Source: Candidatus Caldarchaeum sp.
GTDB lineage: Archaea > Thermoproteota > Nitrososphaeria_A > Caldarchaeales > Caldarchaeaceae
Length of the DNA stretch: 19,001 nucleotides
Reading direction: 5' to 3'
Assembly (NCBI GenBank): GCA_038831915.1
Contig: JAWBKB010000025.1
Coordinates: 1-19,001, forward strand
The position numbers were made by a program, and so were the translations under genes. The notes under the pieces are model-generated. The model was not told the origin of the DNA and did not search any database. It worked only from the letters and a program-made list of their open reading frames with translations. Numbering within the stretch: position 1 is the first letter of the stretch; each line of letters opens with the position of its first letter. Positions 1 to 17,750 of the stretch are shown here, one piece after another.

Positions 1-126
1 GACACTAACATTGTCCTTGTAGTAAATAGCCTTATATGGCCAATTTTCACAAAAACGTTTAAAAGCTCTTCCAGCCTTTAAATACCAAAATACACCTTAT
101 TAAGAAAAAAGAAAAACAAATCAACC

Positions 127-142
127 ATCATAATATTATGAT
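127..142. promoter_or_regulatory. Perfect 16-bp palindrome ATCATAATATTATGAT, candidate transcription-factor operator
   Basis: Identical to its own reverse complement; lies in AT-rich intergenic DNA about 145 bp upstream of the first CDS. Confidence 0.5.
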
Positions 143-251
143 TAGGCGGCCGAATATAATCGTGTATTAAATATTTCAGGTAAATATGTTGACTATGCGT
201 TTATTTCGCACCTGAGAAAATTGTTTTTAAGTTGTGGAACATGTCGTAGGT

Positions 252-284: not shown

Positions 285-2570
285 ATGATGAAATACGTCG
301 GGGCCAGTGTAAAGCGGAAAGAAGACCCGAGACTGGTTAAGGGAAATTCAACCTACGTCGACGATGTCAGGCTTTCCAACATGCTTTACGCTGTTTTTCT
401 TCGAAGCACACATGCACACGCGAAAATCAAGAAAATCGACGTAGAAGAAGCACGAAAAATCAAGGGTGTCCACGGTGTTTTCACGGCTGCAGATTTGAAG
501 GAATTTGTGGGCCCATGTGTGGTAGAGACGATTTTTGACGAAAAGAGGTTTGTGGAACATTTTCCTCTCGCCGTCGATGAAGTGAAGTTTGTCGGAGAAC
601 CCGTCGCGGTGGTCGTCGCTGAAGACCTTTACACAGCCTTCGACGCCCTCGACCACATCAAAGTCGAGTACGAGCCGTTGCCAGCAGTTGTCTACCCTGA
701 AAAAGCCTTGGAAAAAGACTCCCCAAAAGTGCACGAAAACCTCGAAGACAACCTATGTTATCGATGGAAACGAGTTTATGGAAATGTGGAGAAAATTTTC
801 AAAGAAGCTGACGAAGTAGTTGAAGGTCGTTTCGTCATTCAGAGGTTGGCTCCTTCGCCGATGGAGCCGCGGGGAGTCGTGGCAAGCTACGACGGCTATA
901 ACAGGCTTTTGACAGTTTGGTCTTCGACACAGTTTCCGCACCGCCTCCGCACATGGATATCCATGTCTCTCAAGATTCCGGAAAATAGGATAAGAGTCAT
1001 CGCTCCCGAAGTCGGAGGCGGCTTCGGGTCAAAACTAAACCATTACCCCGAGGAGGTCATAGTTCCGTATCTCGCTATGAAGCTCAACAGGCCCGTCAAA
1101 TGGTTTGAAGACCGCGGTGCAAATCTGTCAGCCACAACGCATGGACGTGACATGATAGCCTACGTATCCGCGGCCGCAAAACGCAGCGGCGAAATCCTCG
1201 GGCTCAAGGTCAAAATAATCGCCGACCTCGGAGCATACAACCATGTTTACACGCAGGACAACCCTGTGATGGCCGCCCGCATGATTCAGGGATGCTATAA
1301 GCTTCAAAGCCTCGAGCTCGAAGTCGTCGGCGTCTACACCAACAAGATGGCTACAGACGCTTACAGAGGTGCGGGAAGGCCTGAAGCATCCTACATCATC
1401 GAGAGGACCGTCGACCTCGTCGCCCGCAAACTCGGAATGGACCCAGCTCAAATCAGGAAAATCAACTTCATCCATCCCGATGAATTCCCCTATGAAACTC
1501 TCACTCGTTTCACCTACGATTCTGGAAACTATCAAAATGCGCTCGACGAACTGCTCAAAGCCATGGATTACGACGGGTTGAAGAGACAGCGGGATGAATT
1601 GCGGAAACAGGGCCGTTACCTGGGCATCGGGCTTTCCACATTCGTCGAAGTATGTAACTTCTCTTATCAGAGTGCATCGGTCCGCGTCGAGCCCAGCGGC
1701 AAGATAATCGTGTTGACCAGCACGTCGCCGCATGGACAGGGTGAGGAAACCGCTTTCGCCCAAATAGTAGCAGATGAATTCGGTGTTTCCGTGGACGATG
1801 TTCAAGTCATCCACGGCGACACTCTTGCCATTCCCTATGGCTGGGGAACTGCGGGCAGTTGGACCTTAACAGCAGGGGGAATCGCCATCCTCAAAGCATG
1901 TAACGAGGTCAAAGAAAAGATGTTGAAGATTGCCGCGCATAGCTTGGAATGCAGGCCGGAAGACGTGGAACTCGCGGATGGAAAATTCTACGTCAAAGAA
2001 GCTGTGGAAAAAAGTGTTTCCTTTGAGGAAGTTGCGGCGAATGCGTATGATGCTGAAAAGCTTCCGGACGGTGTTGAGATGGGGCTGGCAGCGACGAGTT
2101 TCTACAACCCTGATTTGACGTTTCCCTTCGGCGCGTATGGCGCGGTTGTGGAAGTCTTTCCCGAAACCGGCCAGGTCGAGGTCAAGCGACTTTACATGGT
2201 GAGCGACTGCGGCAAAGTCGTCAACCCGATGCTCGTCGACGGACAAATCATGGGCGGCGCGATGCAGGCCATCGGACAAGCTCTTTACGAAGAAGTCGTC
2301 TACAACGAAGACGGTGTGCTACTTACCAGCAGCTTCACGGATTACTTGGTGCCGTCAGCTGTGGAGACACCGCCGATGGTTTTGCTCAGGACAGAAACAC
2401 CTGCACCCAACCCTCTTGGCACAAAAGGCGTGGGGGAGCTCGCCACCATTGGAGTCACGCAAGCAATCGTAAACGCGGTTCAAGACGCACTATCACCGTT
2501 CAACGTAACCATCGAAAAAACACCACTCCTACCATCCTACGTCTGGAAAATCATGTCAGGAAAAAAATGA
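285..2570 (+). CDS. Xanthine dehydrogenase family molybdopterin-binding large subunit (form II CoxL-like / aldehyde oxidoreductase-like)
   Basis: N-terminal VGASVKRKEDPRLVKG..YVDD; MEPRG; VGGGFGSK; active-site loop AYRGAGRPEA; HGQGEET; DCGKVVNPMLVDGQIMGG; KGVGE with catalytic Glu. Start could be 288 (ATGATG). Confidence 0.93.
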   Translation: MMKYVGASVKRKEDPRLVKGNSTYVDDVRLSNMLYAVFLRSTHAHAKIKKIDVEEARKIKGVHGVFTAADLKEFVGPCVVETIFDEKRFVEHFPLAVDEVKFVGEPVAVVVAEDLYTAFDALDHIKVEYEPLPAVVYPEKALEKDSPKVHENLEDNLCYRWKRVYGNVEKIFKEADEVVEGRFVIQRLAPSPMEPRGVVASYDGYNRLLTVWSSTQFPHRLRTWISMSLKIPENRIRVIAPEVGGGFGSKLNHYPEEVIVPYLAMKLNRPVKWFEDRGANLSATTHGRDMIAYVSAAAKRSGEILGLKVKIIADLGAYNHVYTQDNPVMAARMIQGCYKLQSLELEVVGVYTNKMATDAYRGAGRPEASYIIERTVDLVARKLGMDPAQIRKINFIHPDEFPYETLTRFTYDSGNYQNALDELLKAMDYDGLKRQRDELRKQGRYLGIGLSTFVEVCNFSYQSASVRVEPSGKIIVLTSTSPHGQGEETAFAQIVADEFGVSVDDVQVIHGDTLAIPYGWGTAGSWTLTAGGIAILKACNEVKEKMLKIAAHSLECRPEDVELADGKFYVKEAVEKSVSFEEVAANAYDAEKLPDGVEMGLAATSFYNPDLTFPFGAYGAVVEVFPETGQVEVKRLYMVSDCGKVVNPMLVDGQIMGGAMQAIGQALYEEVVYNEDGVLLTSSFTDYLVPSAVETPPMVLLRTETPAPNPLGTKGVGELATIGVTQAIVNAVQDALSPFNVTIEKTPLLPSYVWKIMSGKK

Positions 2571-2592
2571 TAAACCGGGAGCGAAGGTTCCT

Positions 2593-3759
2593 TTGAGAAT
2601 CGCGGTTCTCGGCGGAGCTGGTGCGACAGGTTCCGCGGCTGTCAGAAACCTGGTCGAGGACAAACATGTTTCAGAAGTCTTGGTCGGCGACGCTAATGAG
2701 GAGAAGCTCGAAAAATTCGCCTCGAAGCTTCGAAGTAGCAAAGTTTCTACGAAGGTGGTTGACGTGAGGAAAATCGATGAAACAGCGGATTTTATTCGTG
2801 GATGCGACGTTGTGATCAACGCGGTCCAGTACTACTTTAACTTGGATGTGATGATGTCCGCGTTGAAGGCTGGTGTCCACTACGTCGATCATGGCGGGCT
2901 GTATCACGTCACGTTGAAGCAGCTTGAACTCGACGACCAGTTTTGCAGTAAGGGGTTGACTGCCTTGGTTGGCATGGGTGCTCAGCCAGGGTTGACCAAC
3001 CTATGCGCTTCACATGCGGCCTCGCTGCTGGACGAGATGAAAGCCGTTTACATCCGTGATGGATACCGTGATTTGACGCCGAATGGGCCGTTTTTCACAT
3101 GGTCTCCTTCGACGCTTTTCGACGAAATGATGCTTGACGCCGTCGTGCTACGCGGCGGAAAAACCGTCAGCGTTCCAGCGTTCTCCCTCTCTGAAGAGGT
3201 TGATTTCCCAGAGCCCGTAGGCCGTCTAAAAACCTACGTAACCCTGCATTCGGAGCTCGCGACCTTTCCACGAAGCTTCAAGGGCAAAAACCTCTCGGAA
3301 TGCGACTGGATGGAAGGAAGCCCCGAGCTGGAGCTTATCAAGAAACTCGCCGACATCGGGTTCGCGTCCCTGGATGAGATAGATTATGAAGGCTGCCGTG
3401 TTTCACCGCGTAGACTGTTTCTCAAGCTCGTGGAGATGAAGGACCTTATGGGTTTCAGGGAAGGAGTGGTTCCCGACGACTGGGAATACACATACGTCTA
3501 CGTTGTTGGCAGAAAGATGAGCAGAGACGTGAAGCTGGTTTACCGAATTTTGTTTCCTCCGCATCAGGGTTGGATGATGAGCTGCTCCCAAACAGGGGTG
3601 GGCATACCTTCGTCGACAGCCGCCGTGATGATAGCTGAAAACCAAATAACAGCGAGAGGAGTCGTGCCTCCCGAAACCGCTTTGGAGCCCGCCAGCTTCT
3701 TCGAAAAAATGGCTCAGCATGGCATCGAAATCATGCAAACCGAGGAATCAATTCGCTGA
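2593..3759 (+). CDS. Saccharopine dehydrogenase-like NAD(P)-dependent oxidoreductase (lysine 6-dehydrogenase / carboxynorspermidine dehydrogenase superfamily)
   Basis: Rossmann IAVLGGAGATG; DVVINA; HYVDHGG; GMGAQPGLTN; FPEPVG..TLHSELATFP; C-terminal GVVPPE. TTG start 22 bp after the upstream stop, so probably co-transcribed. Confidence 0.88.
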   Translation: MRIAVLGGAGATGSAAVRNLVEDKHVSEVLVGDANEEKLEKFASKLRSSKVSTKVVDVRKIDETADFIRGCDVVINAVQYYFNLDVMMSALKAGVHYVDHGGLYHVTLKQLELDDQFCSKGLTALVGMGAQPGLTNLCASHAASLLDEMKAVYIRDGYRDLTPNGPFFTWSPSTLFDEMMLDAVVLRGGKTVSVPAFSLSEEVDFPEPVGRLKTYVTLHSELATFPRSFKGKNLSECDWMEGSPELELIKKLADIGFASLDEIDYEGCRVSPRRLFLKLVEMKDLMGFREGVVPDDWEYTYVYVVGRKMSRDVKLVYRILFPPHQGWMMSCSQTGVGIPSSTAAVMIAENQITARGVVPPETALEPASFFEKMAQHGIEIMQTEESIR

Positions 3760-3762
3760 ATT
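3755..3762 (+). repeat. Left target-site duplication GCTGAATT (contains the TGA stop of the dehydrogenase gene)
   Basis: Identical 8-mer at 4416-4423; both copies directly abut the TIRs. Confidence 0.9.
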
Positions 3763-4415
3763 GGGACTGTCAACTTAAGGTCATCCATGACCTTATCCAC
3801 TTCTCTGATACCTTAGGCCTGTATGTTGGGAAGCATGTGTTGAACTGTTTTATTCTTCTCTTGAGCTTGCTGAACCAAGACTCTATCGTGTTTCTCCTAC
3901 CGAACGTCTCTACCCTCCTCCTAAAGCCCAGAACCTTCATAGGTCATCCATACCATGGAGCCCTATCCATGTAGACTGTAGGGTTATTAGCGCACCTATC
4001 CCTAACAACCTCGAGGAACCTTATACACTCTGCTATCCCCCTAACCCTAGATACCTGGACTGCCATTATCTCCCTAGCAGCCCATACATAGGCTCTCCTG
4101 ACGAGATTATGGATTACTGTCTCATCTACAGCTATCGATCCACGCCTACTATAGATGAGAAGGCCTCACCACCCCTTTGGAACCAATCCCTAACAGACTC
4201 AAGGCTTACCTGGAATCCGAGCTCGCATAATATCTCCGCTACCCTCCTGAGGCTATAGCCTAACACCTAGAGCCCTAAACCCACGGAGACGTCCTAAGAC
4301 GGAAAAAGACACTTCTATCACCGAAGAAACCTATAAGACGGCCGAGGCCTACCCCAACTCTGCATCACCCACAACTAATGGGAAAGCCCAGACCATAGAC
4401 CAAGTTGACAGTCCC
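3763..4415 (-). mobile_element. IS6-family insertion sequence, 653 bp, non-autonomous (decayed transposase)
   Basis: Perfect 14-bp terminal inverted repeats GGGACTGTCAACTT (3763-3776) and AAGTTGACAGTCCC (4402-4415); flanking 8-bp direct repeat GCTGAATT; DDE transposase remnants on the minus strand. Confidence 0.92.
3770..4365 (-). pseudogene. IS6-family DDE transposase pseudogene
   Basis: Manual translation gives GYSLRRVAEILCELGFQVSLESVRDWFQR (HTH-like), IAVDETVI..YVWAA (first Asp), PTVYMDRAPWY (second Asp), FGRRNTIESWFSKLKRRIKQF (Glu). Frameshifts near 4150 and 4260-4280, in-frame TGA at 3944-3946, natural stop inside the TIR at 3770-3772. The 5' start is uncertain. Confidence 0.88.
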
Positions 4416-4423
4416 GCTGAATT
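4416..4423 (+). repeat. Right target-site duplication GCTGAATT
   Basis: Identical to 3755-3762. Confidence 0.9.
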
Positions 4424-4425
4424 TC

Positions 4426-4441
4426 CGAAAAAATTTATAAA
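4426..4441 (+). promoter_or_regulatory. BRE + TATA box (CGAAAAAA-TTTATAAA) of the substrate-binding protein gene
   Basis: Consensus TTTATAAA at 4434-4441 preceded by a purine-rich BRE, 24-31 bp upstream of ATG 4465. Confidence 0.75.
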
Positions 4442-4464
4442 CATTTGATGGATCCACATCACAT

Positions 4465-5700
4465 ATGACCGACGTTTCTCGACGCTCCTTTTTCCGGGCA
4501 GTTGGTTCAGTAGTGGCGGCCGGAATCGCGGGAATAGCCGGCGGATATGTTCTCGGTTCCTCGATGACTCGGGCAGAGTTTGAAAGACTTTACGGGCCCG
4601 GCGCCACTCAGGCTGGAAACGAAATAATTAGAAGGCTTGAAGCGGAAATTAAGGAGCTGAAGGAAAAGCTCGCACAGTACGAAATCAAGGACAAGGAAGT
4701 GGGGGTTTATTTCTGGGCCGAAACAATACCCGAACATTTGATCACGTTTTTCGAGGAGAAAACAGGTGTCCGCGTCATTTTCGACACGTTTGACAGTAGC
4801 GACGAAGTTTACGCCAAGCTTTTTACCGGCCGAATGCCCTACGACGTGACATCAGTCACCATGGGTGGAATGACCCGTCAAGAACATGAAAGATATCTGA
4901 TGAAGCTTGATTTGTCCCGCATTCCAAACTTCAAGAGATATGCTTTCGACGGATTCATCAAGGAAATTCTCAACCCGCCTTTTGACCCGAGGAGGGATTA
5001 TTCTGTTCCCGCAGAGCTCGGCACAACAGGCGTGTCATTTAGAACGGATAAAATTTCTGAAAACGACTGGCCAACAGGATTCAGAGATTCGCTTTTTGAT
5101 TTTGACGGGTTTTTGCGGAAATACAGCCCACGAGATGGTGTGAAGAGGGCTACGATGATTCCCGGCGGAGTCGAAACAATTCCCGTAGTTATCAAGGCAA
5201 TTATGGGTAAGTCCATAAACGCCATCACGCCTGAAAACGTACAGGAAGCGAAGGAAATTCTCATCCAGCAGAAGCCATACCTCGCGACATATGCGGGGGC
5301 GTCGGAATATGTGCCAGGCCTCGCCGAAGCAAGGTTCTGGGTCAGCGAAACATGGATTTGGCAGGATTCGCCTAACAACGTAGACTACGTCGCCCCGGTC
5401 GAAGGCTCCGAAATCTGGGAAGATTCTTTCGTCATTCCCAAGTCAGCTGAACACGTCGACGCCGCGTATGCGTTCATCAACTACATGCTTGAGCCGCCGG
5501 TTCAAGTCGCCCATGTTCTTTACAACAGCTTGGTAACCCCGAACAGGCTCGCTTATGAAATGCTTCCAGACGACGTGAAAAACGACCCGAGCATCTACCC
5601 GCCCAAAGAAATCATCGACAGGTATGAGATGTGGGTTAACCGCACGCCGGAGGAGAAAGAACTTCTCACACGAGCATGGCTCGAAGTATTAGCCGCGTAA
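4465..5700 (+). CDS. potD: PotD/PotF-family (polyamine-type) ABC transporter substrate-binding protein with Tat signal
   Basis: SRRSFFR twin-arginine motif plus hydrophobic helix; FEEKTGVRVIFDTFDSSDEVYAKL; KLDLSRIPNF; FDPRRDYSVP; EGSEIWEDSFVIPKSA..AYAFINYMLEP; IYPP; adjacent to potABC. Confidence 0.85.
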   Translation: MTDVSRRSFFRAVGSVVAAGIAGIAGGYVLGSSMTRAEFERLYGPGATQAGNEIIRRLEAEIKELKEKLAQYEIKDKEVGVYFWAETIPEHLITFFEEKTGVRVIFDTFDSSDEVYAKLFTGRMPYDVTSVTMGGMTRQEHERYLMKLDLSRIPNFKRYAFDGFIKEILNPPFDPRRDYSVPAELGTTGVSFRTDKISENDWPTGFRDSLFDFDGFLRKYSPRDGVKRATMIPGGVETIPVVIKAIMGKSINAITPENVQEAKEILIQQKPYLATYAGASEYVPGLAEARFWVSETWIWQDSPNNVDYVAPVEGSEIWEDSFVIPKSAEHVDAAYAFINYMLEPPVQVAHVLYNSLVTPNRLAYEMLPDDVKNDPSIYPPKEIIDRYEMWVNRTPEEKELLTRAWLEVLAA

Positions 5701-6474
5701 CTATTTTCTTCTATACCTTGTGTAGAGTAAAGCGAGGGTCAAGGAGATTAACAGCGACACAGTTGCCACTGCGTTTACTTCCGGAGATATTCCTCGTCCT
5801 CTACCAGCTGCCGCGTTCCAGATGTAGACGGGAAGTGTTTCAAACCCTGGGGCCCGTGTGAACTGTGTTTTGATAAAGCTGTCCCAAGACCATGTGAAAA
5901 TCAACAATCCGCCGGTGACTATGCCGGGCATCAACAACGGCAAGGTGACGCTGAAAAACGTTCTCACGCCTGAAGCACCCAGAACACGGGCCGCGTCTTC
6001 GTAGATTTTCGGCATCCCCGCCATTCGTGCCCTGATGACGACGTAGACGAGCGGAAACCAGACAAGGTGCCCGACAATCACCGCGAAGACCCCGAGCGGA
6101 AGGTCAACCCAGATGAAGAATAAGACGAGTGTCAAAGCTTCTGCGATTTCGGGAATCACGATGGATAGGTAGAACGCGTTATGAAGAGACATGCGTATTC
6201 TTTCGGAGAGCTTTTCCACGGCGACCGCGGCGAGTAGGGCAAACACGATGGAGATGGCGGTGACGACAGCCGCCACCCAGAAACTGTTGTAAAGGGCGTT
6301 GAGCACTCTTGTGTTTGAGAAGGCGCGGAAATACCAGTCCAACGTGAAGCTGCCGACAGATGTTAGAGAGCCGCCCGAAGTGAAGGAGACCAGAGCCATA
6401 GCGGCTAACGGTGCGTAGAGAAATGCGAAGATAAGCACCGCGAATCCTTTGAGCAGTAGGTCGCCGAGCTTCAA
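5701..6474 (-). CDS. potC: ABC transporter permease, PotC-like
   Basis: FLYAPL..LVSF, FTLDWY, EAA loop YEDAARVLGAS..TFFSVTLPLLMPGI, TLPVYIW, ISPEVNAVAT; 4-bp overlap with potB. Confidence 0.9.
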   Translation of the reverse strand: MKLGDLLLKGFAVLIFAFLYAPLAAMALVSFTSGGSLTSVGSFTLDWYFRAFSNTRVLNALYNSFWVAAVVTAISIVFALLAAVAVEKLSERIRMSLHNAFYLSIVIPEIAEALTLVLFFIWVDLPLGVFAVIVGHLVWFPLVYVVIRARMAGMPKIYEDAARVLGASGVRTFFSVTLPLLMPGIVTGGLLIFTWSWDSFIKTQFTRAPGFETLPVYIWNAAAGRGRGISPEVNAVATVSLLISLTLALLYTRYRRK

Positions 6475-7331
6475 AGCGTGAACTCCTCTCTTGAATATTT
6501 GAGGTATAGGATGACGCCGACCATGACCATCGCGATGTATATCAGGGATAGCGCTGAGCCCCAGTTCCAGTTTCGTGCGCTGATGAACGCGGAGTAAATC
6601 ATGGTTCCGACGAAGACTTCGCTGGGGCCTCCGAGAAAAGCAGGTATGACGAATTCGCCTGCCGCGGGGATGAATGTGAGCAGCGTTCCAGCTACTAGAC
6701 CTGGCTTGCTGAGCGGCAGCGTCACTTTGAAGAAAGCCGATAAAGGCCCTGCTCCGAGAGCTCGCGCCGCCTCGATGTGTGTTTTGCTGATTTTTTCCAG
6801 GCTTGCGTAAAGAGGTAGAATCATGAAGGGTAGGTAGCCGTAAATCATGCCCAATAGGACGGCGAATTCGTTGTAGATGAGGTAAAGCGGTTCTCTAATG
6901 ATTCCCATGGCGATGAGTATGTTGTTGACAATTCCTTCGGGCCCGAGAAGGGATAGAACGGCGTAGGCGCGGAGCAGGAAAGTGACCCATAGCGGTAGAA
7001 TGATTAAGAGGACGAGGAAGTTTTTGTATTGTCCGCCTTTAAACGCGATGAGGTATGCAATCGGGTAGCCGAGAATGATGCATGCGGCTGTCGTAGCTAA
7101 TGCGAAAACCAGCGACTTGCCCAGCACACGGAGGAACACGGTGTCCAGTGCCTGCTGAAAATACGTGAGCGTGAAAACATCCCCTCTCAGCTGCTGCGCG
7201 GGACTGGGAAGGATGACGCCGAAGCTTACGCCAACAACCGTGATAAAGGGGAAGATGAAAAAGACGAGGTAGAAGAGGATGGGCGGCAGTAGAAGAAGTA
7301 GAATCAGCCCGGTTTTCCGCTTCTGTTTCAT
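6471..7331 (-). CDS. potB: ABC transporter permease, PotB-like
   Basis: LGYPIAY, LPLWVTFLLRAYA, YLPFMILPLYASLEKI, EAARALGA, FVIPAFLGG, RNWNWGSALS; 4-bp overlap with potA. Confidence 0.92.
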   Translation of the reverse strand: MKQKRKTGLILLLLLPPILFYLVFFIFPFITVVGVSFGVILPSPAQQLRGDVFTLTYFQQALDTVFLRVLGKSLVFALATTAACIILGYPIAYLIAFKGGQYKNFLVLLIILPLWVTFLLRAYAVLSLLGPEGIVNNILIAMGIIREPLYLIYNEFAVLLGMIYGYLPFMILPLYASLEKISKTHIEAARALGAGPLSAFFKVTLPLSKPGLVAGTLLTFIPAAGEFVIPAFLGGPSEVFVGTMIYSAFISARNWNWGSALSLIYIAMVMVGVILYLKYSREEFTL

Positions 7332-8398
7332 CTCTTCTCAACCACGAAAGAGTCGCTGGGCTTCCAGCAGATTGTAACGCTGTCACCGATTTTGATGTTC
7401 CTCAATATCTGGGGCTCGCGGACATGTATCGTCAACAACACCTCGGGAAGAACTCCGACCTTGACCACTCCGTACGGGCCCATAAACTGTTTATCTATGA
7501 CTGATGCGGAAAGCTTGTTTTCATAATCCGGCGAGTTGCCGATGACGATTCTCTCAGGCCTAATTGATAGGATGGCCTTTTTACCGATGACTCCGTTCGT
7601 CTGCGAAGGGTCGATGGTTATCGGCGGCAGTCCATTTGCGACGAAAATGTTCTCCCCTTCGACTGCGCCTTCGATGAGGTTTGTCTCGCCGATGAAGTCG
7701 GCGACGAATTTGTTCAATGGTTTTTCGTAGATTTCCTCGGGAGTGCCGACTTGAAGAACCATTCCACGGTCCATTACGGCTATTCTGTCGGACATGGCGA
7801 ACGCCTCCATCTGGTCATGAGTGACATAGATGAAAGTCGTTCCCACTCTTTTCTGAAGACGCTTCAGCTCAAGCTGCATTTTCTGCCGTATCTTTAAGTC
7901 GAGAGGTCCGAGAGGCTCGTCGAGAAGAAGAACTTTAGGCTCCAACACGAGCGAACGGGCGATTTCAACTCTCTGCCTTTCACCTCCGCTGAGTTGATGC
8001 GATTTTTTCCATGCATATTTTTCGAAAGGCATGTTCATCAGTTCTAAAATTTTCTTGACTCTTTCACGAATCTCGCCGCGTGAAAGACCCCGCATCTTCA
8101 ATCCGAAAGCGATGTTGTCGAAGACGTTGAGATGGGGGAAAATCGCGGTTCCCTGAAAAACAAGTCCAACACCTCTTTTGTTCGGCGGGATGTCGTCCAT
8201 GATTTTGCCGCCGATTTTTACGTTTCCTTCATCCTGGCGTTCAAGACCCGCGATTATCCTGAGGAGAGTTGTTTTGCCGCATCCGCTGGGCCCCAGCAAG
8301 GAGAAGAATTCGTTCTTGTTGATTGATAGAGTTACTCCGCGAAGTGCTTCGACGCCGTCGTAGCTTTTTCGAACGTTCAGGACTTCTACTTCGGCCAT
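7328..8398 (-). CDS. potA: ABC transporter ATP-binding protein, PotA-like
   Basis: Walker A GPSGCGKT, signature LSGGERQR, Walker B LLLDEP, YVTHDQ, FVADFIGETN, C-terminal TOBE-like RPERI. Confidence 0.95.
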   Translation of the reverse strand: MAEVEVLNVRKSYDGVEALRGVTLSINKNEFFSLLGPSGCGKTTLLRIIAGLERQDEGNVKIGGKIMDDIPPNKRGVGLVFQGTAIFPHLNVFDNIAFGLKMRGLSRGEIRERVKKILELMNMPFEKYAWKKSHQLSGGERQRVEIARSLVLEPKVLLLDEPLGPLDLKIRQKMQLELKRLQKRVGTTFIYVTHDQMEAFAMSDRIAVMDRGMVLQVGTPEEIYEKPLNKFVADFIGETNLIEGAVEGENIFVANGLPPITIDPSQTNGVIGKKAILSIRPERIVIGNSPDYENKLSASVIDKQFMGPYGVVKVGVLPEVLLTIHVREPQILRNIKIGDSVTICWKPSDSFVVEKR

Positions 8399-8452
8399 CG
8401 TATTCTTTGCCTCACCTTTCTATGAGCTTTACATAAATATTGTGAAACATGG

Positions 8453-9817
8453 TTATAGGATTTCTTCAACCCCTATGGGTGCGAATTTTTTCTTCAGCTT
8501 TGTCACCACGGCTTTCATGGCTTCCAGCGCTGTTTCGATGTCTTGTTGGGTGTGTTGCACCGAAACGGTCCACTGCTCGTCATAGCCTAAAGCCTGTGGG
8601 ATAACGCCGTTCGCTAGCATACCCATCACCCAGGCATACCATTTGCCGAAGTCGTTGAACTTGACGAATTCACGCCAGTTGGTTATCTTGTGAGGCGTGA
8701 AGTAGATGGTTCCGCTTGTGGCGATGTGCACGATGTTATACTCGATGCCGGCGTCCTGGAGAATGTCTCCGTATCCGTGTGCGAGGTCTTGGCTTAGGCT
8801 CTGGGCTTTTCGCAGATTTTCCTCTGTTAAAATCTTGGTCAAAGTCACGTAGGCCGCTGACACCGACAACGGGTTTGAGTTGAATGTTCCGCCGTGAGCG
8901 GTCTTGCCAGGGCCCACGACTTCGAAAATTTCCTTCCGCGCCATGACAGCTGAAAAAGGATAACCTCCTGCGATCGACTTCGCCGCGACCATTACATCGC
9001 CTTTAACACCGCACCATTCCTGAACACCTCGATAAAACTTTCCACTTGTCTTAACCTCGTCGAAAATCAGCAAGCAATTGTATTCATCCGCTATTTCCCG
9101 CAGTCCTTTGAGGAACTCGATGTCCGGTATGACGACGCCCATGTTCATGGCGATTGGTTCGAGAATTATGCCTGCGACCTGATTTCCATGTTGCTGCATG
9201 ATTTTTTCCACGGCGTCGTAATCTCCAAACGGCGCGGCCACCACGAGGTTTGCGAATTCTTCCGGCATACCCATACTCGCCGGAACTGAATTAGGTGTTT
9301 TAATGTGACCCGCCCTATAGATATTAGGCTTAACGCTCACCATCAACGGTTCATGCGTGCCGTGGAAACAACCTTCAAACTTGAGAATCTTCTTGCGGCC
9401 CGTGAAGGCCCGTGCCAGCCGAACCGCGAGCAAAGTCGCCTCCAACCCGGTGGTCGCAAACCTAACAATGTCATATCCAAACCTCGAAGTAAGAACTTTC
9501 GCGGTTTTGACAGATGTTTCGGATTCGAACCCGAAAATCGTGCCATTTTCGACCACTTTTCGCATCTCTTCGACGAGAATCGGATGAGCATGTCCGACAC
9601 CCAACGCTCCAAAAGCCATGTTAAAGTCGATGTATTCGTTTCCGTCAACATCCCATATCCGCGGCCCTTTACCAGACCGCATAAACAATGGATATGGGTC
9701 GAAAATCCTCCAGTTGCTATGAACACCGTATGGAGTCAGTTTTTTCGCATCCTCGTAGAGCTGAGAACTCCGTGATGTTTTGGACTTGAATTCCTCTAGG
9801 AATGATTCCTCAGACAT
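8453..9817 (-). CDS. Class III PLP-dependent aminotransferase (glutamate-1-semialdehyde aminomutase-like, substrate unknown)
   Basis: WDVDGNEYIDF, GHAHP, TGLEAT, KFEGCFHG, IILEP, LIFDEVKT, PLP lysine in AAKSIAGGYP, HGGTFNSNP. ATG 9817 preferred over TTG 9829 from TATA spacing. Confidence 0.9.
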   Translation of the reverse strand: MSEESFLEEFKSKTSRSSQLYEDAKKLTPYGVHSNWRIFDPYPLFMRSGKGPRIWDVDGNEYIDFNMAFGALGVGHAHPILVEEMRKVVENGTIFGFESETSVKTAKVLTSRFGYDIVRFATTGLEATLLAVRLARAFTGRKKILKFEGCFHGTHEPLMVSVKPNIYRAGHIKTPNSVPASMGMPEEFANLVVAAPFGDYDAVEKIMQQHGNQVAGIILEPIAMNMGVVIPDIEFLKGLREIADEYNCLLIFDEVKTSGKFYRGVQEWCGVKGDVMVAAKSIAGGYPFSAVMARKEIFEVVGPGKTAHGGTFNSNPLSVSAAYVTLTKILTEENLRKAQSLSQDLAHGYGDILQDAGIEYNIVHIATSGTIYFTPHKITNWREFVKFNDFGKWYAWVMGMLANGVIPQALGYDEQWTVSVQHTQQDIETALEAMKAVVTKLKKKFAPIGVEEIL

Positions 9818-9846
9818 ACTTTTGAACAATCAATACTAAAAATATA

Positions 9847-9854: not shown

Positions 9855-10056
9855 GCTATTCCTACATCATACGCCGGTTTTCGGCTAGCATATCCAGGTT
9901 TCGCAAACAATTTGTGTAAGCGAACTTAGACGTGTGACGACATGCTGTAAATAGAAACGTGATGTCAAGAATGTTTGGATAGCAACTTAACAAGCCACGT
10001 CTTTGGGCGAGGATTTGGTTACGCATAAATTCACGCTATGGTTTGTATATGTCGGG

Positions 10057-10359
10057 ATGACGGTTCGCGTCAATTTCTATTCGAGTTATCTGAAGGAGGC
10101 CTCGGGAACCGAAAGCATTCATATCTCAGAGGAGCCCAAAACTGTGGGAGAATTACTCGACCTTCTCGCCGCAAAGCTCGGAGCGAAATTCGAAGAACGC
10201 GTTTACGACTCGAAACAGAAGGTGCTGAAAAGAGCGGTTGTCCTTCTCGTTAACGGCCACAGTGTAAAGATGCTGCAGGGCATGGATACTCCTCTTACAT
10301 CGGGTGACAACGTAACAATCGACACCGTAGAGATAGTGGAAATAGTGGGCGGCGGATAA
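10057..10359 (+). CDS. MoaD/ThiS/SAMP-family ubiquitin-like sulfur carrier protein
   Basis: Beta-grasp pattern MTVRVNFYSSYLKEASG..TVGELLDLL..VLLVNG..GMDTPLTSGDNVTI with C-terminal GGG. ATG 10057 matches the family N-terminus better than TTG 10003. Confidence 0.88.
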   Translation: MTVRVNFYSSYLKEASGTESIHISEEPKTVGELLDLLAAKLGAKFEERVYDSKQKVLKRAVVLLVNGHSVKMLQGMDTPLTSGDNVTIDTVEIVEIVGGG

Positions 10360-10381
10360 AAAATAAGGAATGTTTATTTTT
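10359..10381. terminator. Candidate bidirectional terminator between convergent SAMP and Fe-S subunit genes
   Basis: AAAAATAA-(7 nt)-TTATTTTT inverted repeat giving a T-tract on each strand. Confidence 0.4.
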
Positions 10382-10835
10382 CTTTGGCCGCGTCGAGAAT
10401 CGCGTCGATTATCTGCCTGTAGCCCGTGCATCTGCAGAGAATGCCGTCAATCGCCTCGGCCACTCTTTTCCGGTAGAGGCCGTTTTCATGCTGTATCAAC
10501 CAATGGCCGGTCAAGACGAACGCGGCGGTGCATATTCCGCATTGAAGCGCTCCGTGTTTGATGAAGGATTTCTGAATGGGGCTGAGTGAGCCGTTTTTCG
10601 CAAGTCCTTCGATGGTCAGTATTTCGGCTCCGTCTACTTCGGGAGCGAGGACGAGACAGGATTTGACCGGGGCGTTGTTGACTAGAACGGTGCAGATGCC
10701 GCAGTCTCCTCTGTCACATCCATGCTTTGTTCCTTTGAGCTTTAGCTTTTCGCGGATAAGCCAAAGCAAAGTCCTGTTATCCTCGACCTCGACTTTTCTT
10801 TCAACACCGTTTACCTTCACGGTTATGCTACGCAA
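10374..10835 (-). CDS. Mo-hydroxylase small subunit, two [2Fe-2S] clusters (CoxS/CutS-like)
   Basis: GTKHGCDRGDCGICTV..KSCL; QCGICT; CRCTGY. TTG 10835 has GGAGG 9 nt upstream and overlaps the medium-subunit stop. Confidence 0.93.
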   Translation of the reverse strand: MRSITVKVNGVERKVEVEDNRTLLWLIREKLKLKGTKHGCDRGDCGICTVLVNNAPVKSCLVLAPEVDGAEILTIEGLAKNGSLSPIQKSFIKHGALQCGICTAAFVLTGHWLIQHENGLYRKRVAEAIDGILCRCTGYRQIIDAILDAAKEK

Positions 10836-11703
10836 CTGCCATCGCCTCCACACCAAGTAACTTGTTCAATGCGTTCCGCGTGAAAGTCTTCACAAGATGC
10901 AGCCGGTATTCTTTGCTCGCCCTAACGTCTGAAATGGGTGACACAGCTGACACCGCCAATTCAACAGCTTTGTTAATTTTATCACGGATGTCGCCGTCTT
11001 GTTTAAACACGTTTTCAGCATTTCTCGCCCTGACAGGGGTTGGTGCGACGCTCGCGTAGGCAAGCCTGACATCTCTTCCCCTGTCGGCGACCAAAGCCGC
11101 TACACCGACCAAAGCCAAATCTTCACTCCAAACTCGCATAGCCTTCATGTAGGTTCCCTTCGCGTCATGCGGAGGCTCGGGAAGCTTCACCGAAACAACA
11201 ATTTCCCACGGCTCCAACACCGTCTTCTTAACTCCGGCGAAGAACTGCTCAATGGGAATCTTTCTGCCGCCGCGTTTACTGGCTGTTTCAACCACGGCGT
11301 CGTACACCAACAACGCTGGAGCCGTATCTGCTGCGGGTGAAGCGGTGCAGATGTTACCCACCAACGTCGCACGCATACGGAGGATTTCATCAGCCACGGT
11401 TTTCACAGCCTCCCACAAAACAGGATATTTATTCAACACAGGCTCGTAGGAAAGAATCTGATGGTAGGTGACGGTCGCGCCTATCACTAGCCCGTTGCCC
11501 GGCTCATACTTTAGAACGTTCAATCCCTTAATCCGTTTGACGTCGATGACTGCTTTCGGGTGTTTCTTTTTTTCGCGTAAATCGACGATGAGGTCTGTGC
11601 CTCCTGCGAGGATTTTCGCTTCGCCGCCGTATTTCTCCAACAGGTCAAGAGCTTCTTCAAGTGTTTCAGGCGCGTAATACGTGAATTTCGGCAAATACAT
11701 CAC
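10828..11703 (-). CDS. Mo-hydroxylase medium subunit, FAD-binding (CoxM/CutM-like)
   Basis: FTYYAPETLEEAL, KILAGGTDL, IGATVT, RATLVGNICTASPAAD, PISDVRASKEYR. GTG 11703 or ATG 11700, with GGAGGTGA SD. Confidence 0.93.
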   Translation of the reverse strand: MMYLPKFTYYAPETLEEALDLLEKYGGEAKILAGGTDLIVDLREKKKHPKAVIDVKRIKGLNVLKYEPGNGLVIGATVTYHQILSYEPVLNKYPVLWEAVKTVADEILRMRATLVGNICTASPAADTAPALLVYDAVVETASKRGGRKIPIEQFFAGVKKTVLEPWEIVVSVKLPEPPHDAKGTYMKAMRVWSEDLALVGVAALVADRGRDVRLAYASVAPTPVRARNAENVFKQDGDIRDKINKAVELAVSAVSPISDVRASKEYRLHLVKTFTRNALNKLLGVEAMAVA

Positions 11704-14060
11704 TTCATCACCTCCATCACAATTTTCTCCTTCTTCGCCTGTATGTGGAGCCAGACGTTTTCAGGTGATATTGGCAGGTTTTTGATGTTGATTCCAAGGG
11801 CGTCGTAAAGTGCGTTTGCGATGGCTGTTTCGACCGACAGCATCGACAACTCTCCGATTCCACGTGCTCCATAGGGGCCGTCGAGCTGGGGGTTTTCTAT
11901 GATGATGGCTTCATGTTCTTCTGGGATGTCGCTTGCTCTCGCGATTTTGTAGTCGGTGAGGTTCGGGTTAAGCATTCGTCCCTGCTCATCATAGACATAT
12001 CCCTCTAAAACGCCGAGGCTCATCGACTGAAGAGCGCCTCCGTAAATCTGGCCGAGGACTAGCAAGGGGTTGATGGCTTTTCCTATGTCAAACGCGGAGA
12101 CAAGTTTCAGGACTTTTATCATTCCTGTGCCTGGGTCGACTTCGATTTCGACGGCGTGAGCTCCGAAAGTCCATTTCAACGCCGGATATCCCTGACCTGT
12201 TTCGGGGTCGAGGTATGTTAGCCGAGCCGCTGAATAAAAGCCGCGTCCGATGACCGGGCCGCCGACCACGTTGCCGTTAGGATACACGTAGCCGTTGACA
12301 ATTTGACGCAGCTCAAGCCCGACGTCAGGCCTTCCCTTCACATACACTTTTTCATCGGCCAACACCAAGTCGTCTTTGGAAACTCGGAGAACTTGCGAAG
12401 CGATTTCGAGTATTTGGTTTTTCGCGTCTCGTGCCGCGGCCTGAACCGCTCGACCGTCCATAAACAATCCTCGACTGGCTACGGTCTGCCAGGAATACGG
12501 CGAGACATCGGTGTGTCTGAATGGGACGACTTTGATTTTTTCAATCGGCAGCCCGAGTTCTTCCGCTGCGATTTGGGCGAGAGCTGTTTCAGCTCCTTGT
12601 CCTATTTCGGTTATTCCGAGCAATAGCTCAGCTGTTCCGTCTTCGTTGAATTTGATTACGGCTGCTGATGAAGCGTTGGGAGGCATGGCGGGAGCTTTCC
12701 ACAGCGCCGCGATTCCTTTACCACGAGGCTTGCCGGTCGGAGACACAGATTTCTTACCCCATTCAATTTTTGCAGCCACGGCCCTTATGCATTCGTCGAC
12801 TCTGCCCGCATCCTCTCTCAAAACCTCGCCCGTAGGAGTTGTTTTGCCGGGAAGCAACGCGTTCTTCAGCCGAATTTCAACCGGGTCCATCCCCAGCTCT
12901 CGTGCCAACAAATCCATTTGGCGCTCGATGGCCCAGAGAAATTCGAAATGACCGAAGCCGCGGAAAGCCGTTCCCCATGGATGATTTGTATAGACCGTGA
13001 GCGATTCTGTTTCGACGTTCGGCACATAGTAAGGCCCTGTGCATGAATAGCCGGCGGCACGGCCGACGTTCACGCCGTAGTCAGCGTATGCTCCCGCATC
13101 GTAGACGTAGAGAATTTTTTCAGCCATGATTTCGCCGGATTTCTTTGCGCCGGTTTTGATTTTCGCGTAAAGGCCCTGCCTCACCGGAGCCGTCATGAAC
13201 TGTTCTTCACGGGTCAGTTCCAGCCGCACGGGCCTGCCGCCAGCCATCTTCGACAGCATCACGACTAATGGCTCAAAGTTGATTCCAGCTTTTCCACCAA
13301 ATCCACCTCCAACGTAGGGCACGTAGACCGTGATGCGGTGCTCGGGAACGCCGAGCGAAACACTGAGAATATGCCGTACCGTGAAAGGTGATTGAGCCGA
13401 CGTCCACACCTTGATTTTTCCATCAGGCATGTATTGTCCGATGCTGATGTGTGTTTCGAGCGGAACATGTGAAACCTGAGGCATGCTGAATTCATTTTCC
13501 AACACCACGTCGCTTTGAGCGAAACCAGTCCGAATGTCGCCTTTCTTTAAGACGAACCTGCTGGCGATGTTAGTGCCTGCGACGGGATGGAAAGCAGGCG
13601 AATGAGCGTATTCTCCAAGCTCTTCATGAACCAACGGCGCCCCGTGCTTCAACGCTTCCCTAACGTCTAAAACGGCTGGCAAAGGCTGGTATTGGACGTC
13701 TATCAGCTCGACTGCTTCTTCCGCTTGTTCAGGTGTTTCAGCGACGACGGCTGCGACAGGTTCGCCGGTCCATCTCACTTTTTTACGAGCCAGTATGTTC
13801 CGGTCATTTACGTAGAGACCTACGCGGAAAGGAAAATCATCACCTACCGCAACAGCGACAACTCCCGGAGATTTCCGCGCCTTCGACGTGTTTATGGAGA
13901 GAATTTTGGCATGGGCGTACGGGCTGAGCAGAAGCTTGGCGTGAAGCATTCCGGGAAGCTCAATATCACCCGTATATTCCGCGACTCCGAGAATTTTCTC
14001 AAACGAATCAACTCGTGGAATGGGCTTCCCTACGTACCTAAAGTCAGCCCCGAAACTCAT
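11700..14060 (-). CDS. Xanthine dehydrogenase family molybdopterin-binding large subunit (heterocycle hydroxylase-like)
   Basis: VGKPIPRVD, VGGGFGGK, AFRGFG active-site loop, EIGQGAET, QTVASRG, DIGKAINP..GQIYGG, GPYGARGIGE. ATG 14060 preferred over 14069 from TATA spacing. Confidence 0.93.
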   Translation of the reverse strand: MSFGADFRYVGKPIPRVDSFEKILGVAEYTGDIELPGMLHAKLLLSPYAHAKILSINTSKARKSPGVVAVAVGDDFPFRVGLYVNDRNILARKKVRWTGEPVAAVVAETPEQAEEAVELIDVQYQPLPAVLDVREALKHGAPLVHEELGEYAHSPAFHPVAGTNIASRFVLKKGDIRTGFAQSDVVLENEFSMPQVSHVPLETHISIGQYMPDGKIKVWTSAQSPFTVRHILSVSLGVPEHRITVYVPYVGGGFGGKAGINFEPLVVMLSKMAGGRPVRLELTREEQFMTAPVRQGLYAKIKTGAKKSGEIMAEKILYVYDAGAYADYGVNVGRAAGYSCTGPYYVPNVETESLTVYTNHPWGTAFRGFGHFEFLWAIERQMDLLARELGMDPVEIRLKNALLPGKTTPTGEVLREDAGRVDECIRAVAAKIEWGKKSVSPTGKPRGKGIAALWKAPAMPPNASSAAVIKFNEDGTAELLLGITEIGQGAETALAQIAAEELGLPIEKIKVVPFRHTDVSPYSWQTVASRGLFMDGRAVQAAARDAKNQILEIASQVLRVSKDDLVLADEKVYVKGRPDVGLELRQIVNGYVYPNGNVVGGPVIGRGFYSAARLTYLDPETGQGYPALKWTFGAHAVEIEVDPGTGMIKVLKLVSAFDIGKAINPLLVLGQIYGGALQSMSLGVLEGYVYDEQGRMLNPNLTDYKIARASDIPEEHEAIIIENPQLDGPYGARGIGELSMLSVETAIANALYDALGINIKNLPISPENVWLHIQAKKEKIVMEVMK

Positions 14061-14066
14061 CACATA

Positions 14067-14093
14067 CATAATTTATGGCGCGTGGTTTAAAAA
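14067..14093 (-). promoter_or_regulatory. TATA box TTTTTAAA (14093-14086) and palindrome CATAATTTATG (14067-14077) upstream of the L/M/S operon
   Basis: TATA lies 26-33 bp upstream of ATG 14060; the palindrome lies between TATA and start. Confidence 0.5.
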
Positions 14094-14213
14094 CATAATC
14101 ATTTTGACGACGGCGAAACAACTATCACTAAATTATTTACTAAATTTGTGTTCACGAGCTTTATGCATCAGTTGAATAGGGTTAAAACCAGCGACCGCCA
14201 ACACATATTGCGC

Positions 14214-15611: not shown

Positions 15612-15619
15612 CCATTTTA

Positions 15620-16882: not shown

Positions 16883-16885
16883 GGT

Positions 16886-17689: not shown

Positions 17690-17750
17690 ACATATCAACA
17701 TGTCAAAACTAATATAAATATTGGCCGCCAGAAGTTGATGATGTATTGAC
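17690..17750. promoter_or_regulatory. 61-bp divergent promoter with one central AT block (AATATAAATATT, 17711-17722)
   Basis: Reads TTTATATT on minus and TATAAATA on plus; flanked by inverted repeat CATGTCAA (17699-17706) / TTGACATG (17746-17753). Confidence 0.55.

Follow-up and report, generated by a model that had tools for sequence, protein, structure and literature searches.

In the accessible part of PMC9397018, cleavage of an internal C-N bond of a polyamine is attributed to O2-dependent flavin oxidases or to a spermidine dehydrogenase carrying flavin adenine dinucleotide (FAD) and haem, whereas the gamma-glutamylation, acetylation and transamination routes act on terminal amines. The same part of that source describes a Pseudomonas route that leads from spermidine dehydrogenase through the aminoaldehyde dehydrogenase KauB and beta-alanine to acetyl-CoA. 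In carboxyspermidine dehydrogenase (CASDH), an enzyme of a different fold, the general base is His228, the proton relay consists of Glu230 and Ser144, and aspartate semialdehyde is bound by Glu188 and Glu229; its triad in BfCASDH is H228-E229-E230, and the His-Glu-Glu sequence is lacking in lysine dehydrogenase and saccharopine reductase (PMC10413350). Here, we describe a gene cluster of Candidatus Caldarchaeum, an archaeon of hot springs, in which a CASDH-like protein, P0001, is encoded beside a Pot-type importer, an aminotransferase and a molybdenum (Mo) enzyme subunit. The cluster occupies positions 285-9829 of a 19,001-bp stretch of DNA (the window), which is an entire contig (C25) of the genome. 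We read it as a module that takes up and breaks down a cationic amine, most likely a polyamine (for instance spermidine, norspermidine or a longer compound of that kind), and put the chances of this reading at about even.

The gene cluster, its transporter and its neighbourhood in other genomes

The genome comprises 1.59 Mb in 34 contigs and is 95.6% complete. Genes were called from six-frame open reading frames (ORFs) using Pfam and NCBIfam models with their cut-offs, and the closest named relatives of the window proteins belong to Candidatus Caldarchaeum. The genes between 285 and 9829 form two convergent strings, the first on the forward and the second on the reverse strand:

285-2570, forward: Mo-binding large subunit of the xanthine-oxidase family, form-II CoxL or glyceraldehyde-dehydrogenase-alpha type (Pfam Ald_Xan_dh_C, MoCoBD_1, MoCoBD_2)
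2593-3759, forward: P0001, CASDH-like protein of the saccharopine-dehydrogenase family, H-S-E subfamily (Pfam Sacchrp_dh_NADP, Sacchrp_dh_C)
3763-4415, no strand: repeated non-coding element with terminal inverted repeats, resembling a miniature inverted-repeat transposable element; outside the pathway, splitting the operon
4465-5700, forward: PotD/PotF-like binding protein with a twin-arginine-type signal (RRSFF) and a membrane anchor (Pfam SBP_bac_8)
5701-6474, reverse: PotC-like ATP-binding cassette (ABC) permease (Pfam BPD_transp_1; best NCBIfam model PotC, 153 bits against a cut-off of 326)
6471-7331, reverse: PotB/PotH-like ABC permease (BPD_transp_1; PotB 217 bits and PotH 211 bits, both below cut-off)
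7328-8398, reverse: PotA-like ABC ATPase with a TOBE domain (ABC_tran, TOBE_2; PhnT2 350 bits, potA subfamily 341 with a cut-off of 355.6, PotA 338)
8453-9829, reverse: HemL-like class III aminotransferase dependent on pyridoxal phosphate (Aminotran_3; probable start ATG at 9817)

An earlier note, made from the letters of this DNA alone, had described a Pot-type importer lying between a class III aminotransferase and a Mo subunit with a saccharopine-dehydrogenase-like gene. All of these genes are present at or near the positions it gave, and its end coordinate, 9817, is the probable ATG of the aminotransferase, whose ORF reaches 9829.

We scanned 76 genomes of the class for homologues of P0001 and found matches of at least 49% identity in eight others, namely four of the 12 other genomes of the genus and 1/2, 2/2 and 1/1 genomes of three sister genera; matches of 34-37% identity occurred in seven of the eight genomes of one genus in another family. 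Fourteen loci were fetched and the window proteins mapped onto them. The arrangement of dehydrogenase and transporter is not due to chance, because a Pot-type transporter adjoins the dehydrogenase in 12 of these 14 loci; the other two hold only a paralogue type with the motif H-E-E. Aminotransferase orthologues of at least 54% identity were present in nine of the 14, and Mo subunit orthologues (51-78% identity) in five, all from two genera (g1 and g2). The locus from the other family (G047) carries on one strand the genes for an aminotransferase, the binding protein, PotB, PotC, PotA, the dehydrogenase, a tungsten-type aldehyde:ferredoxin oxidoreductase (AOR) and a further dehydrogenase paralogue, and in another relative (G013) an aldehyde dehydrogenase (ALDH) gene adjoins that of the aminotransferase. 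In a third (G017) the dehydrogenase gene has a polyamine-linked neighbour, the gene for S-adenosylmethionine decarboxylase. The genes that relatives carry on the flanks of the cluster are located on contigs C3 and C13 here. The start of C3 (C3:1745-5963) holds three class III aminotransferase genes, of the omega-aminotransferase, HemL-like and gamma-aminobutyrate (GABA)-aminotransferase types; relatives carry those three directly upstream of the Mo subunit, and the cluster probably continues on C3 in this genome.

Beyond the class, an alignment of 26 family members retrieved 581 related stretches from one-genome-per-species contigs, and the best 80 were kept; these come mostly from Thermoplasmata, with others from Bathyarchaeia, Nitrososphaerales and Caldarchaeales. 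In 64 of the 80, a HemL-like aminotransferase gene lies no more than 2.5 kb from the dehydrogenase gene, and 71 have a class III aminotransferase gene of any type within 5 kb. An ABC ATPase is encoded within 7 kb in 58 loci, and 37 carry a gene for an ALDH, AOR or Mo subunit within 10 kb. These counts come largely from kindred Thermoplasmata loci, many of them cut by contig ends; they are not independent and overstate the support. Five loci were annotated with Pfam and NCBIfam. Among them were Lrp/AsnC regulators, PRK06062-type omega-aminotransferases, GABA-type aminotransferases and an ALDH resembling aminobutyraldehyde dehydrogenase (score 585, cut-off 615), and three (L061, L067 and L057) encode a CoA-acylating methylmalonate-semialdehyde dehydrogenase above cut-off. 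Enzymes of these kinds take part in known routes for polyamines and beta-alanine. In the Bathyarchaeia locus L057 an AOR gene stands directly upstream of the H-S-E gene.

We also searched annotated plasmids with tblastn, which returned 58 records, and viewed six of these. Megaplasmids of Haladaptatus caseinilyticus and Natribaculum luteum carry an Lrp/AsnC regulator, two permeases, an annotated spermidine/putrescine-binding protein, an ATPase, an ALDH or AOR, an ALDH and the dehydrogenase, and in Natribaculum the dehydrogenase gene overlaps one annotated as CoA-acylating methylmalonate-semialdehyde dehydrogenase. Pararhizobium gei and Rhizobium daejeonense carry a GntR regulator, a Pot-type transporter, a glycosyltransferase, two cupins, an ALDH and the dehydrogenase, and Terrarubrum a PucR-type regulator, the dehydrogenase and an ALDH. 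An ALDH is adjacent in five of the six viewed loci (Haladaptatus, Natribaculum, Pararhizobium, Rhizobium daejeonense and Terrarubrum), and a Pot-type binding protein annotated for spermidine/putrescine is part of the string in four. Homologues on Streptomyces plasmids (26-28% identity), which have a different context with neither ALDH nor transporter, were set aside as another subfamily. The synteny search by which the earlier note had proposed to check its reading is positive and extends well beyond close kin, to the 80 related loci and to haloarchaea and rhizobia.

Some of these loci hold further genes of possible interest. On the Haladaptatus caseinilyticus plasmid (L134, 1-1405), genes of the arginine-deiminase and nitrilase families and an Lrp/AsnC regulator stand directly beside the string of Pot, ALDH, ALDH and dehydrogenase genes. 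Agmatine deiminase and N-carbamoylputrescine amidase belong to these two hydrolase families, and the genes could form a branch from agmatine to putrescine. The Bathyarchaeia locus L058 (6176-19987) encodes four saccharopine-dehydrogenase-family paralogues (H-S-E, H-P-E, H-Q-E and one without the motif) together with an ornithine-cyclodeaminase/mu-crystallin gene, an apparently split HemL-like aminotransferase, an EamA transporter and a Pot-type ABC transporter. On a Thermoplasmata chromosome (L086, 6099-9224; 68% GC), a type I glutamine synthetase (above cut-off) and an Amidohydro_3 protein are encoded just upstream of the H-S-E gene, and the aminotransferase and ALDH read as split frames, possibly through frameshifts or assembly errors.

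The binding protein of the window combines a twin-arginine signal and a membrane anchor with a linker of ~40 residues. All 22 of its solved relatives at E <= 1e-6 are polyamine-binding proteins. We compared its pocket with that of E. coli PotD using what we take to be the list of PotD contact residues: W34, E36, E171, W229, W255 and D257 are kept in the window protein; across the 10 aligned sequences, W34, W255 and D257 never vary, and at least 90% share E171 and W229. By sequence, this suggests that the ligand may be a cationic amine and the pocket a changed, perhaps roomier, one.

P0001 and the H-S-E subfamily

P0001 carries T217-L218-H219-S220-E221, the 'TLHSE' of the earlier note. Its AlphaFold model (pLDDT 95.2) has a three-domain fold like that of saccharopine dehydrogenase, as does CASDH, and a Foldseek search with this model returned the CASDH structures 8deb, 8h52, 4ina and 4rl6 at the top, with template-modelling (TM) scores of about 0.85 (range 0.83-0.86). 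Below them came the lysine 6-dehydrogenase 3abi (TM 0.75), followed by saccharopine reductases and homospermidine synthases. A profile of the family gave the same ranking against solved chains, with E-values of 2e-44 for 8deb and 3.7e-23 for 3abi and with 124-155 bits for the CASDH chains against 85 for 3abi. Saccharopine reductases of the LYS9 type matched over only the N-terminal ~195 residues (E about 1e-11 to 1e-9). P0001 is itself ~20% identical to CASDH and scores 46.6 bits on the NCBIfam model NF043000, which has a cut-off of 800.

The residues of the active site divide into those shared with CASDH and those that are not. H219-S220-E221, invariant in all 26 family sequences, aligns to the H-E-E of 8deb, 4ina, 4rl6 and 8h4z; the base His, the relay Glu, Glu188 and Ser144 of CASDH are retained in the family as H219, E221, E178 and T/S135, and Glu229 is replaced by the invariant S220. 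D177-E178 is likewise invariant in the family alignment where CASDH has R-E, the Arg being that of an N-[I/L]-R-E motif in 4/4 structures, and the invariant D33 aligns to the Ser of A-S-R after strand 2 in 4/4 CASDH chains. As a general rule, an Asp after strand 2 favours nicotinamide adenine dinucleotide (NAD) over its phosphate (NADP). Because Asp33 replaces the Ser of the CASDH Ser-Arg, the coenzyme of P0001 is predicted to be NAD, not NADP, which would suit an oxidative role. The pocket may likewise still hold an ammonium group and no longer a carboxylate.

Three established identities were considered for P0001, and by sequence and structure it fits none of them. It is not a saccharopine reductase, having no full-length similarity to solved chains of that enzyme, nor is it a standard CASDH, given the sub-cut-off score, H-S-E in place of H-E-E, the missing decarboxylase partner and Asp33. 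A standard lysine 6-dehydrogenase, which the earlier note had named as an outcome fatal to its reading, is unlikely as well: 3abi ranks beneath every CASDH chain by profile and by TM score, and P0001 is nearest to CASDH.

Among 97 distinct family proteins from all loci, 80 have H-S-E, 11 H-E-E, four H-P-E, one H-Q-E and one none of these. The H-E-E set occupies one side of a branch with a support of 93 in a tree built with FastTree only, in which several long branches were flagged and which we used solely for the separate grouping of the H-E-E paralogues. These are ~30% identical to P0001, and in Caldarchaeum relatives the H-E-E paralogue heads a string that continues with an M20 deacylase, an aminotransferase, PotA, PotB and PotC. 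An H-E-E CASDH-like paralogue adjoins an ArgE/DapE-type M20 deacylase at C13:39295-41606 in this genome and at L034:1703-4012; no carboxyspermidine decarboxylase is encoded in the genome to go with it. Of the haloarchaeal and rhizobial proteins, 3/3 checked carry H-S-E. In a library of 1.84 billion representatives, the family profile matched 7765 proteins at E <= 0.001 and 1074 clusters (50% identity) at E <= 1e-30, and 124 of the best 150 profile matches carry H-S-E. The neighbours are typical of a catabolic cluster, because importers, Lrp/AsnC, GntR or PucR regulators and one to three aldehyde oxidisers surround the gene. As judged from these alignments and neighbourhoods, the H-S-E proteins are a distinct subfamily of the CASDH/saccharopine-dehydrogenase superfamily in a new catabolic context. 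Our search of open-access papers and bioRxiv turned up nothing on either the subfamily or the cluster, and the accessible part of 'New routes for spermine biosynthesis' (PMC11999265) makes no mention of archaea or of a catabolic role for CASDH homologues.

The other polyamine genes of the genome bear on the direction of the reaction. The earlier note had taken the lack of a carboxynorspermidine decarboxylase in the window to favour catabolism; the whole genome, 95.6% complete, also has no match to the nspC-type carboxy(nor)spermidine decarboxylase model TIGR01047 at E <= 0.001, a model that was positive in 7/14 control genomes. The route through decarboxylated S-adenosylmethionine (dcAdoMet) is present, with an S-adenosylmethionine decarboxylase gene on C2 and a gene with a Spermine_synth domain on C5. 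A biosynthetic role of P0001 is unlikely, because there is no nspC-type decarboxylase and the dcAdoMet route is already in place. The note had further proposed that the module could replace a FAD polyamine oxidase, and in keeping with this no FAD amine oxidase was detectable in the genome.

A proposed route and its competitors

In the route that we propose, the PotD-like binding protein and PotABC would import the amine, and the H-S-E dehydrogenase, with its predicted preference for NAD+, would oxidize a C-N bond to an imine whose hydrolysis yields an amine and an omega-amino-aldehyde, in effect a reversal of the CASDH reaction with a substrate that lacks the carboxylate. The aldehyde would then be oxidized irreversibly by the form-II CoxL-type Mo subunit, which would use Fe-S and FAD partners from other loci, or in other lineages by an ALDH or a tungsten AOR; its removal could also pull an unfavourable equilibrium. 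Finally, the HemL-like enzyme and the omega- and GABA-type aminotransferases of the other contig would turn the remaining primary amines into aldehydes or semialdehydes that enter central metabolism, for example from beta-alanine through malonate semialdehyde to acetyl-CoA. The recurrence of the core across several archaeal phyla and some bacteria points to an undescribed, oxygen-independent breakdown of polyamine-like amines. More tentatively, and as a possibility that we favour less than the module itself, the H-S-E proteins may be unrecognized flavin-free, oxygen-independent NAD+-linked polyamine dehydrogenases that split spermidine-type substrates at the secondary amine into a diamine and an aminoaldehyde, and that together with a HemL-like aminotransferase and a Mo, W or NAD aldehyde oxidizer form the main polyamine-mineralizing route, including under anoxia, of Thermoplasmata, Bathyarchaeia, Caldarchaeales, haloarchaea and some rhizobia.

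The aminotransferase scores 348 bits on the NCBIfam hemL model (TIGR00713; cut-off 527.3) and 331 on GntE (cut-off 525). Three HemL-like genes are found in the genome (on C3, C16 and C25), all below the hemL cut-off, the window gene being the third-best. A role of the window gene in tetrapyrrole synthesis is unlikely, and all three probably serve other functions, because no hemA (glutamyl-tRNA reductase, TIGR01035) was found in the genome at E <= 1e-10.

The place of the Mo subunit in the route is less secure. Its best solved relatives are CoxL-type chains (480 bits for 4zoh of S. tokodaii), and its translation contains the form-II motif AYRGAGR and the motif GVGE; the carbon monoxide dehydrogenase models score below their cut-offs (TIGR02416 637 against 991, NF040766 651 against 950), so that it does not classify as form I. 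We consider it somewhat unlikely that this protein stands outside the amine pathway and is a neighbour by lineage only, whether as an oxidoreductase for glyceraldehyde or for aldehydes in general or as a different form-II CoxL enzyme. Such a protein may serve sugar metabolism, and it does pass the cut-off of the glyceraldehyde-dehydrogenase-alpha model (NF041018, 803.4 bits against 790); it occurs in the cluster only in the related, non-independent genera g1 and g2 (six genomes including this one), and no Fe-S or FAD subunit gene adjoins it at 285-2570. Orphan large subunits are common here, the genome having 13 Mo large-subunit genes against five Fe-S and five FAD subunit genes, and in G013 the Mo subunit adjoins the H-E-E paralogue and PotA, not the H-S-E gene. 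On the other side, the gene lies on the same strand as the dehydrogenase gene and only 23 bp upstream of it, it has been retained in the cluster in five relatives, and five other lineages encode an ALDH or AOR immediately next to the H-S-E gene. Three unrelated aldehyde oxidizers are thus found in this position, Mo here, AOR in L057 and ALDH in the five plasmid carriers. An aldehyde-oxidizing role of the Mo subunit in the module fits, because an ALDH or AOR occupies the same place in other lineages. The earlier note had suggested that Mo-dependent oxidation could take over from an NAD-aldehyde dehydrogenase, an idea that may hold for this genus only; most relatives use ALDHs.

Fe-S and FAD subunit genes were found elsewhere. 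An orphan pair of FAD and Fe-S genes lies at C2:79398-80775, far from any large subunit. Within the window, a MoaD/ThiS-like small protein adjoins an Xdh-like operon that is complete in its Fe-S, FAD and Mo subunits (10003-14069), an arrangement that relatives do not show beside the cluster; the FAD and Fe-S subunits of this operon score 213.7 (cut-off 350) and 169.6 (cut-off 290) on the glyceraldehyde-dehydrogenase models and so do not classify as the cognate beta and gamma subunits. The stretch from 14148 to 19001 encodes a carboxyltransferase, an AllG-family protein and a cyclase/formamidase-like protein, as well as an FdrA-like protein that is truncated where the contig ends. In E. coli, AllG and FdrA belong to oxamate carbamoyltransferase, and their position next to the Xdh-like operon hints at purine or ureide breakdown.

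Of the readings that concern P0001 itself, the better-surviving competitor is that it deaminates a primary amine, as lysine 6-dehydrogenase does, and that the module degrades a diamine, an omega-amino acid or lysine; lysine would pass through aminoadipate semialdehyde and aminoadipate to 2-oxoadipate, and 1,3-diaminopropane or beta-alanine through malonate semialdehyde to acetyl-CoA. Some sources label homologues as lysine 6-dehydrogenase, 3abi is a clear structural relative (TM 0.75/0.83) that shares the Asp after strand 2, and lysine catabolism, too, combines a dehydrogenase with an ALDH and an aminotransferase. The Natribaculum gene, placed directly after an ALDH gene and overlapping that of the methylmalonate-semialdehyde dehydrogenase, would fit beta-alanine deamination. 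Nevertheless, we regard this explanation as distinctly unlikely, its diamine and omega-amino-acid versions keeping some plausibility: 3abi matches the family profile far less well than CASDH does and has no His at the invariant His of the family (for lysine dehydrogenase see also PMC10413350), the neighbouring ALDHs reach only 209-254 of the 730 bits required by the piperideine-6-carboxylate dehydrogenase model, with three neighbours passing the cut-off for methylmalonate-semialdehyde dehydrogenase, and the solved relatives of the binding protein all bind polyamines, not amino acids. That P0001 acts reductively, condensing an aldehyde made by the HemL-like enzyme with the imported amine into a polyamine or an opine-like secondary amine (as a decarboxylase-free CASDH variant or a two-enzyme equivalent of homospermidine synthase), is very unlikely, for although all characterized close relatives in PMC10413350 and the accessible part of PMC11999265 (CASDH, CANSDH, CAPADH and carboxyspermine-forming homologues) are biosynthetic, the catalytic His and relay Glu are retained, an S-adenosylmethionine decarboxylase gene adjoins the dehydrogenase gene in one relative (G017) and the aldehyde-forming aminotransferase paired with it in 64 of the 80 loci would suit aldehyde supply, the family has Asp33 in place of the Ser of the Ser-Arg in NADPH-using CASDHs, the context of importers, regulators and aldehyde oxidizers, CoA-acylating methylmalonate-semialdehyde dehydrogenase included, is of a catabolic type, and the genome already possesses the dcAdoMet route.

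Several observations weigh against a polyamine module. The binding protein falls far below the cut-offs of the NCBIfam PotD (115.4 bits against 582) and PotF (113 against 636) models, and about half of the PotD contact residues are lost, with Y37 replaced by Thr, S83 by Thr, Y85 by Gly, D168 by Gly and Y293 by Leu. A PotD-type binding protein is encoded within 7 kb of the dehydrogenase gene in only six of the 80 loci. Both annotated Thermoplasmata loci (L061 and L086) carry Opp/Dpp-type transporter genes, and L086 an SBP_bac_5 binding protein as well; to our knowledge, transporters of this type do not carry polyamines. The glycosyltransferase and two cupins of the rhizobial clusters hint at another substrate, and the two haloarchaeal clusters contain no aminotransferase. 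In this genome the repeated element parts the dehydrogenase gene from that of the binding protein, and the H-E-E paralogue and M20 genes, which precede the aminotransferase in relatives, sit on contig C13. The roles given to D177, S220 and D33 come from alignment rather than from a ligand-bound structure. On balance, gene context and sequence lend partial support to the catabolic, polyamine-like module of the earlier note, whereas we infer from context and residue patterns what its substrate is, which way the dehydrogenase works, how the steps follow one another and what the Mo subunit does.

The repeated element (3763-4415) measures 653 bp and is bounded by perfect terminal inverted repeats of 14 nt (GGGACTGTCAACTT), which occupy 3763-3776 and 4402-4415. 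In relatives only about 40-60 bp separate the dehydrogenase and binding-protein genes. Copies or parts of the element occur on 12 other contigs, and it probably breaks the assembly, because copies are often found at contig ends. Its short broken frames gave no meaningful Pfam match; they had resembled transposase ends by eye, and with Pfam unsupportive of a transposase remnant we describe it simply as a repeated element whose ends are inverted repeats. Read depth over the element was raised in three DNA runs, and among four runs no contig joined 3762 directly to 4416, so that the element-free form was not seen. Another repeat forms the left end of the window (1-152), with copies on C10, C28, C33 and C2. 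The earlier note had overlooked the element, this left-end repeat and the fact that the window is an entire contig. One DNA run yielded an 8.9-kb contig that matches the window only rightwards from base 218, though it is long enough to extend beyond, and the true left neighbour differs from that of the contig because the 8.9-kb contig departs to the left of this base. Contigs of an RNA library match, with 0-1 differences, parts of the genes for the Mo subunit, binding protein, permease, ATPase and aminotransferase; since DNA may be present in that library, this is weak evidence that expression of the cluster is possible. Other parts of the stretch were left uncovered by the RNA run, which carries no weight for or against expression.

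Comparison with known systems

If the proposal is true, NAD-linked cleavage would explain how anaerobic and thermophilic archaea use polyamines from dead biomass as a source of carbon and nitrogen, and a role could be assigned to the many genes that at present bear the label saccharopine dehydrogenase or lysine 6-dehydrogenase. A single position in the pathway would then be filled by a Mo, W or NAD enzyme depending on the lineage. The cultured carriers Haladaptatus caseinilyticus, Natribaculum luteum, Pararhizobium gei and Rhizobium daejeonense make the idea directly testable.

The importer has the same four-part architecture as PotABCD and PotFGHI, and the PotA to PotD models are the best or near-best for its proteins (PhnT2 being marginally above for the ATPase), but unlike those transporters all four window proteins lie under the equivalog cut-offs. 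The Mo subunit resembles the glyceraldehyde dehydrogenase of Sulfolobales and form-II CoxL by score and by its AYRGAGR motif; it differs from the Sulfolobales enzyme in having no adjacent beta and gamma genes and in a context that suggests amine rather than sugar catabolism. P0001 is like CASDH (EC 1.5.1.43; 8deb, 8h4z, 4ina, 4rl6) in its fold, in its His and Glu residues and in the chemistry proposed for it, NAD(P)-linked and passing between amine and aldehyde by way of an imine or secondary amine. The context of CASDH is, however, biosynthetic and includes a partner decarboxylase, whereas that of P0001 comprises an importer, ALDHs and aminotransferases and no such partner. L-lysine 6-dehydrogenase of Pyrococcus horikoshii (PH1688, 3abi) belongs to the same superfamily, shares the Asp after strand 2 that predicts NAD, and is catabolic and aldehyde-yielding, but it is the weaker profile match, it has no His at the H-S-E site, and the ALDHs encoded near genes of the P0001 family are not of the piperideine-6-carboxylate type.

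The E. coli enzymes PatA, PatD, GabT and GabD, as described in the accessible part of PMC9397018, alternate class III aminotransferases with ALDHs, two of each, and the same pattern is seen in L061 (Thermoplasmata) and L067. The present cluster departs from the PatA route in that its aminotransferase is HemL-like and not of the PatA/SpuC branch, in its additional CASDH-like dehydrogenase and, in this genus, in a Mo enzyme in place of the ALDH. In Pseudomonas, the bauABCD genes act in the beta-alanine route. The SpdH/KauB route of Pseudomonas aeruginosa, in the outline given by the accessible part of PMC9397018, follows the logic proposed here, from spermidine to a diamine and an aminoaldehyde, then to GABA or beta-alanine and on to acetyl-CoA. 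SpdH, however, is a FAD/haem enzyme unrelated to the saccharopine-dehydrogenase fold, whereas the cleaving enzyme proposed here would be flavin-free and NAD-linked.

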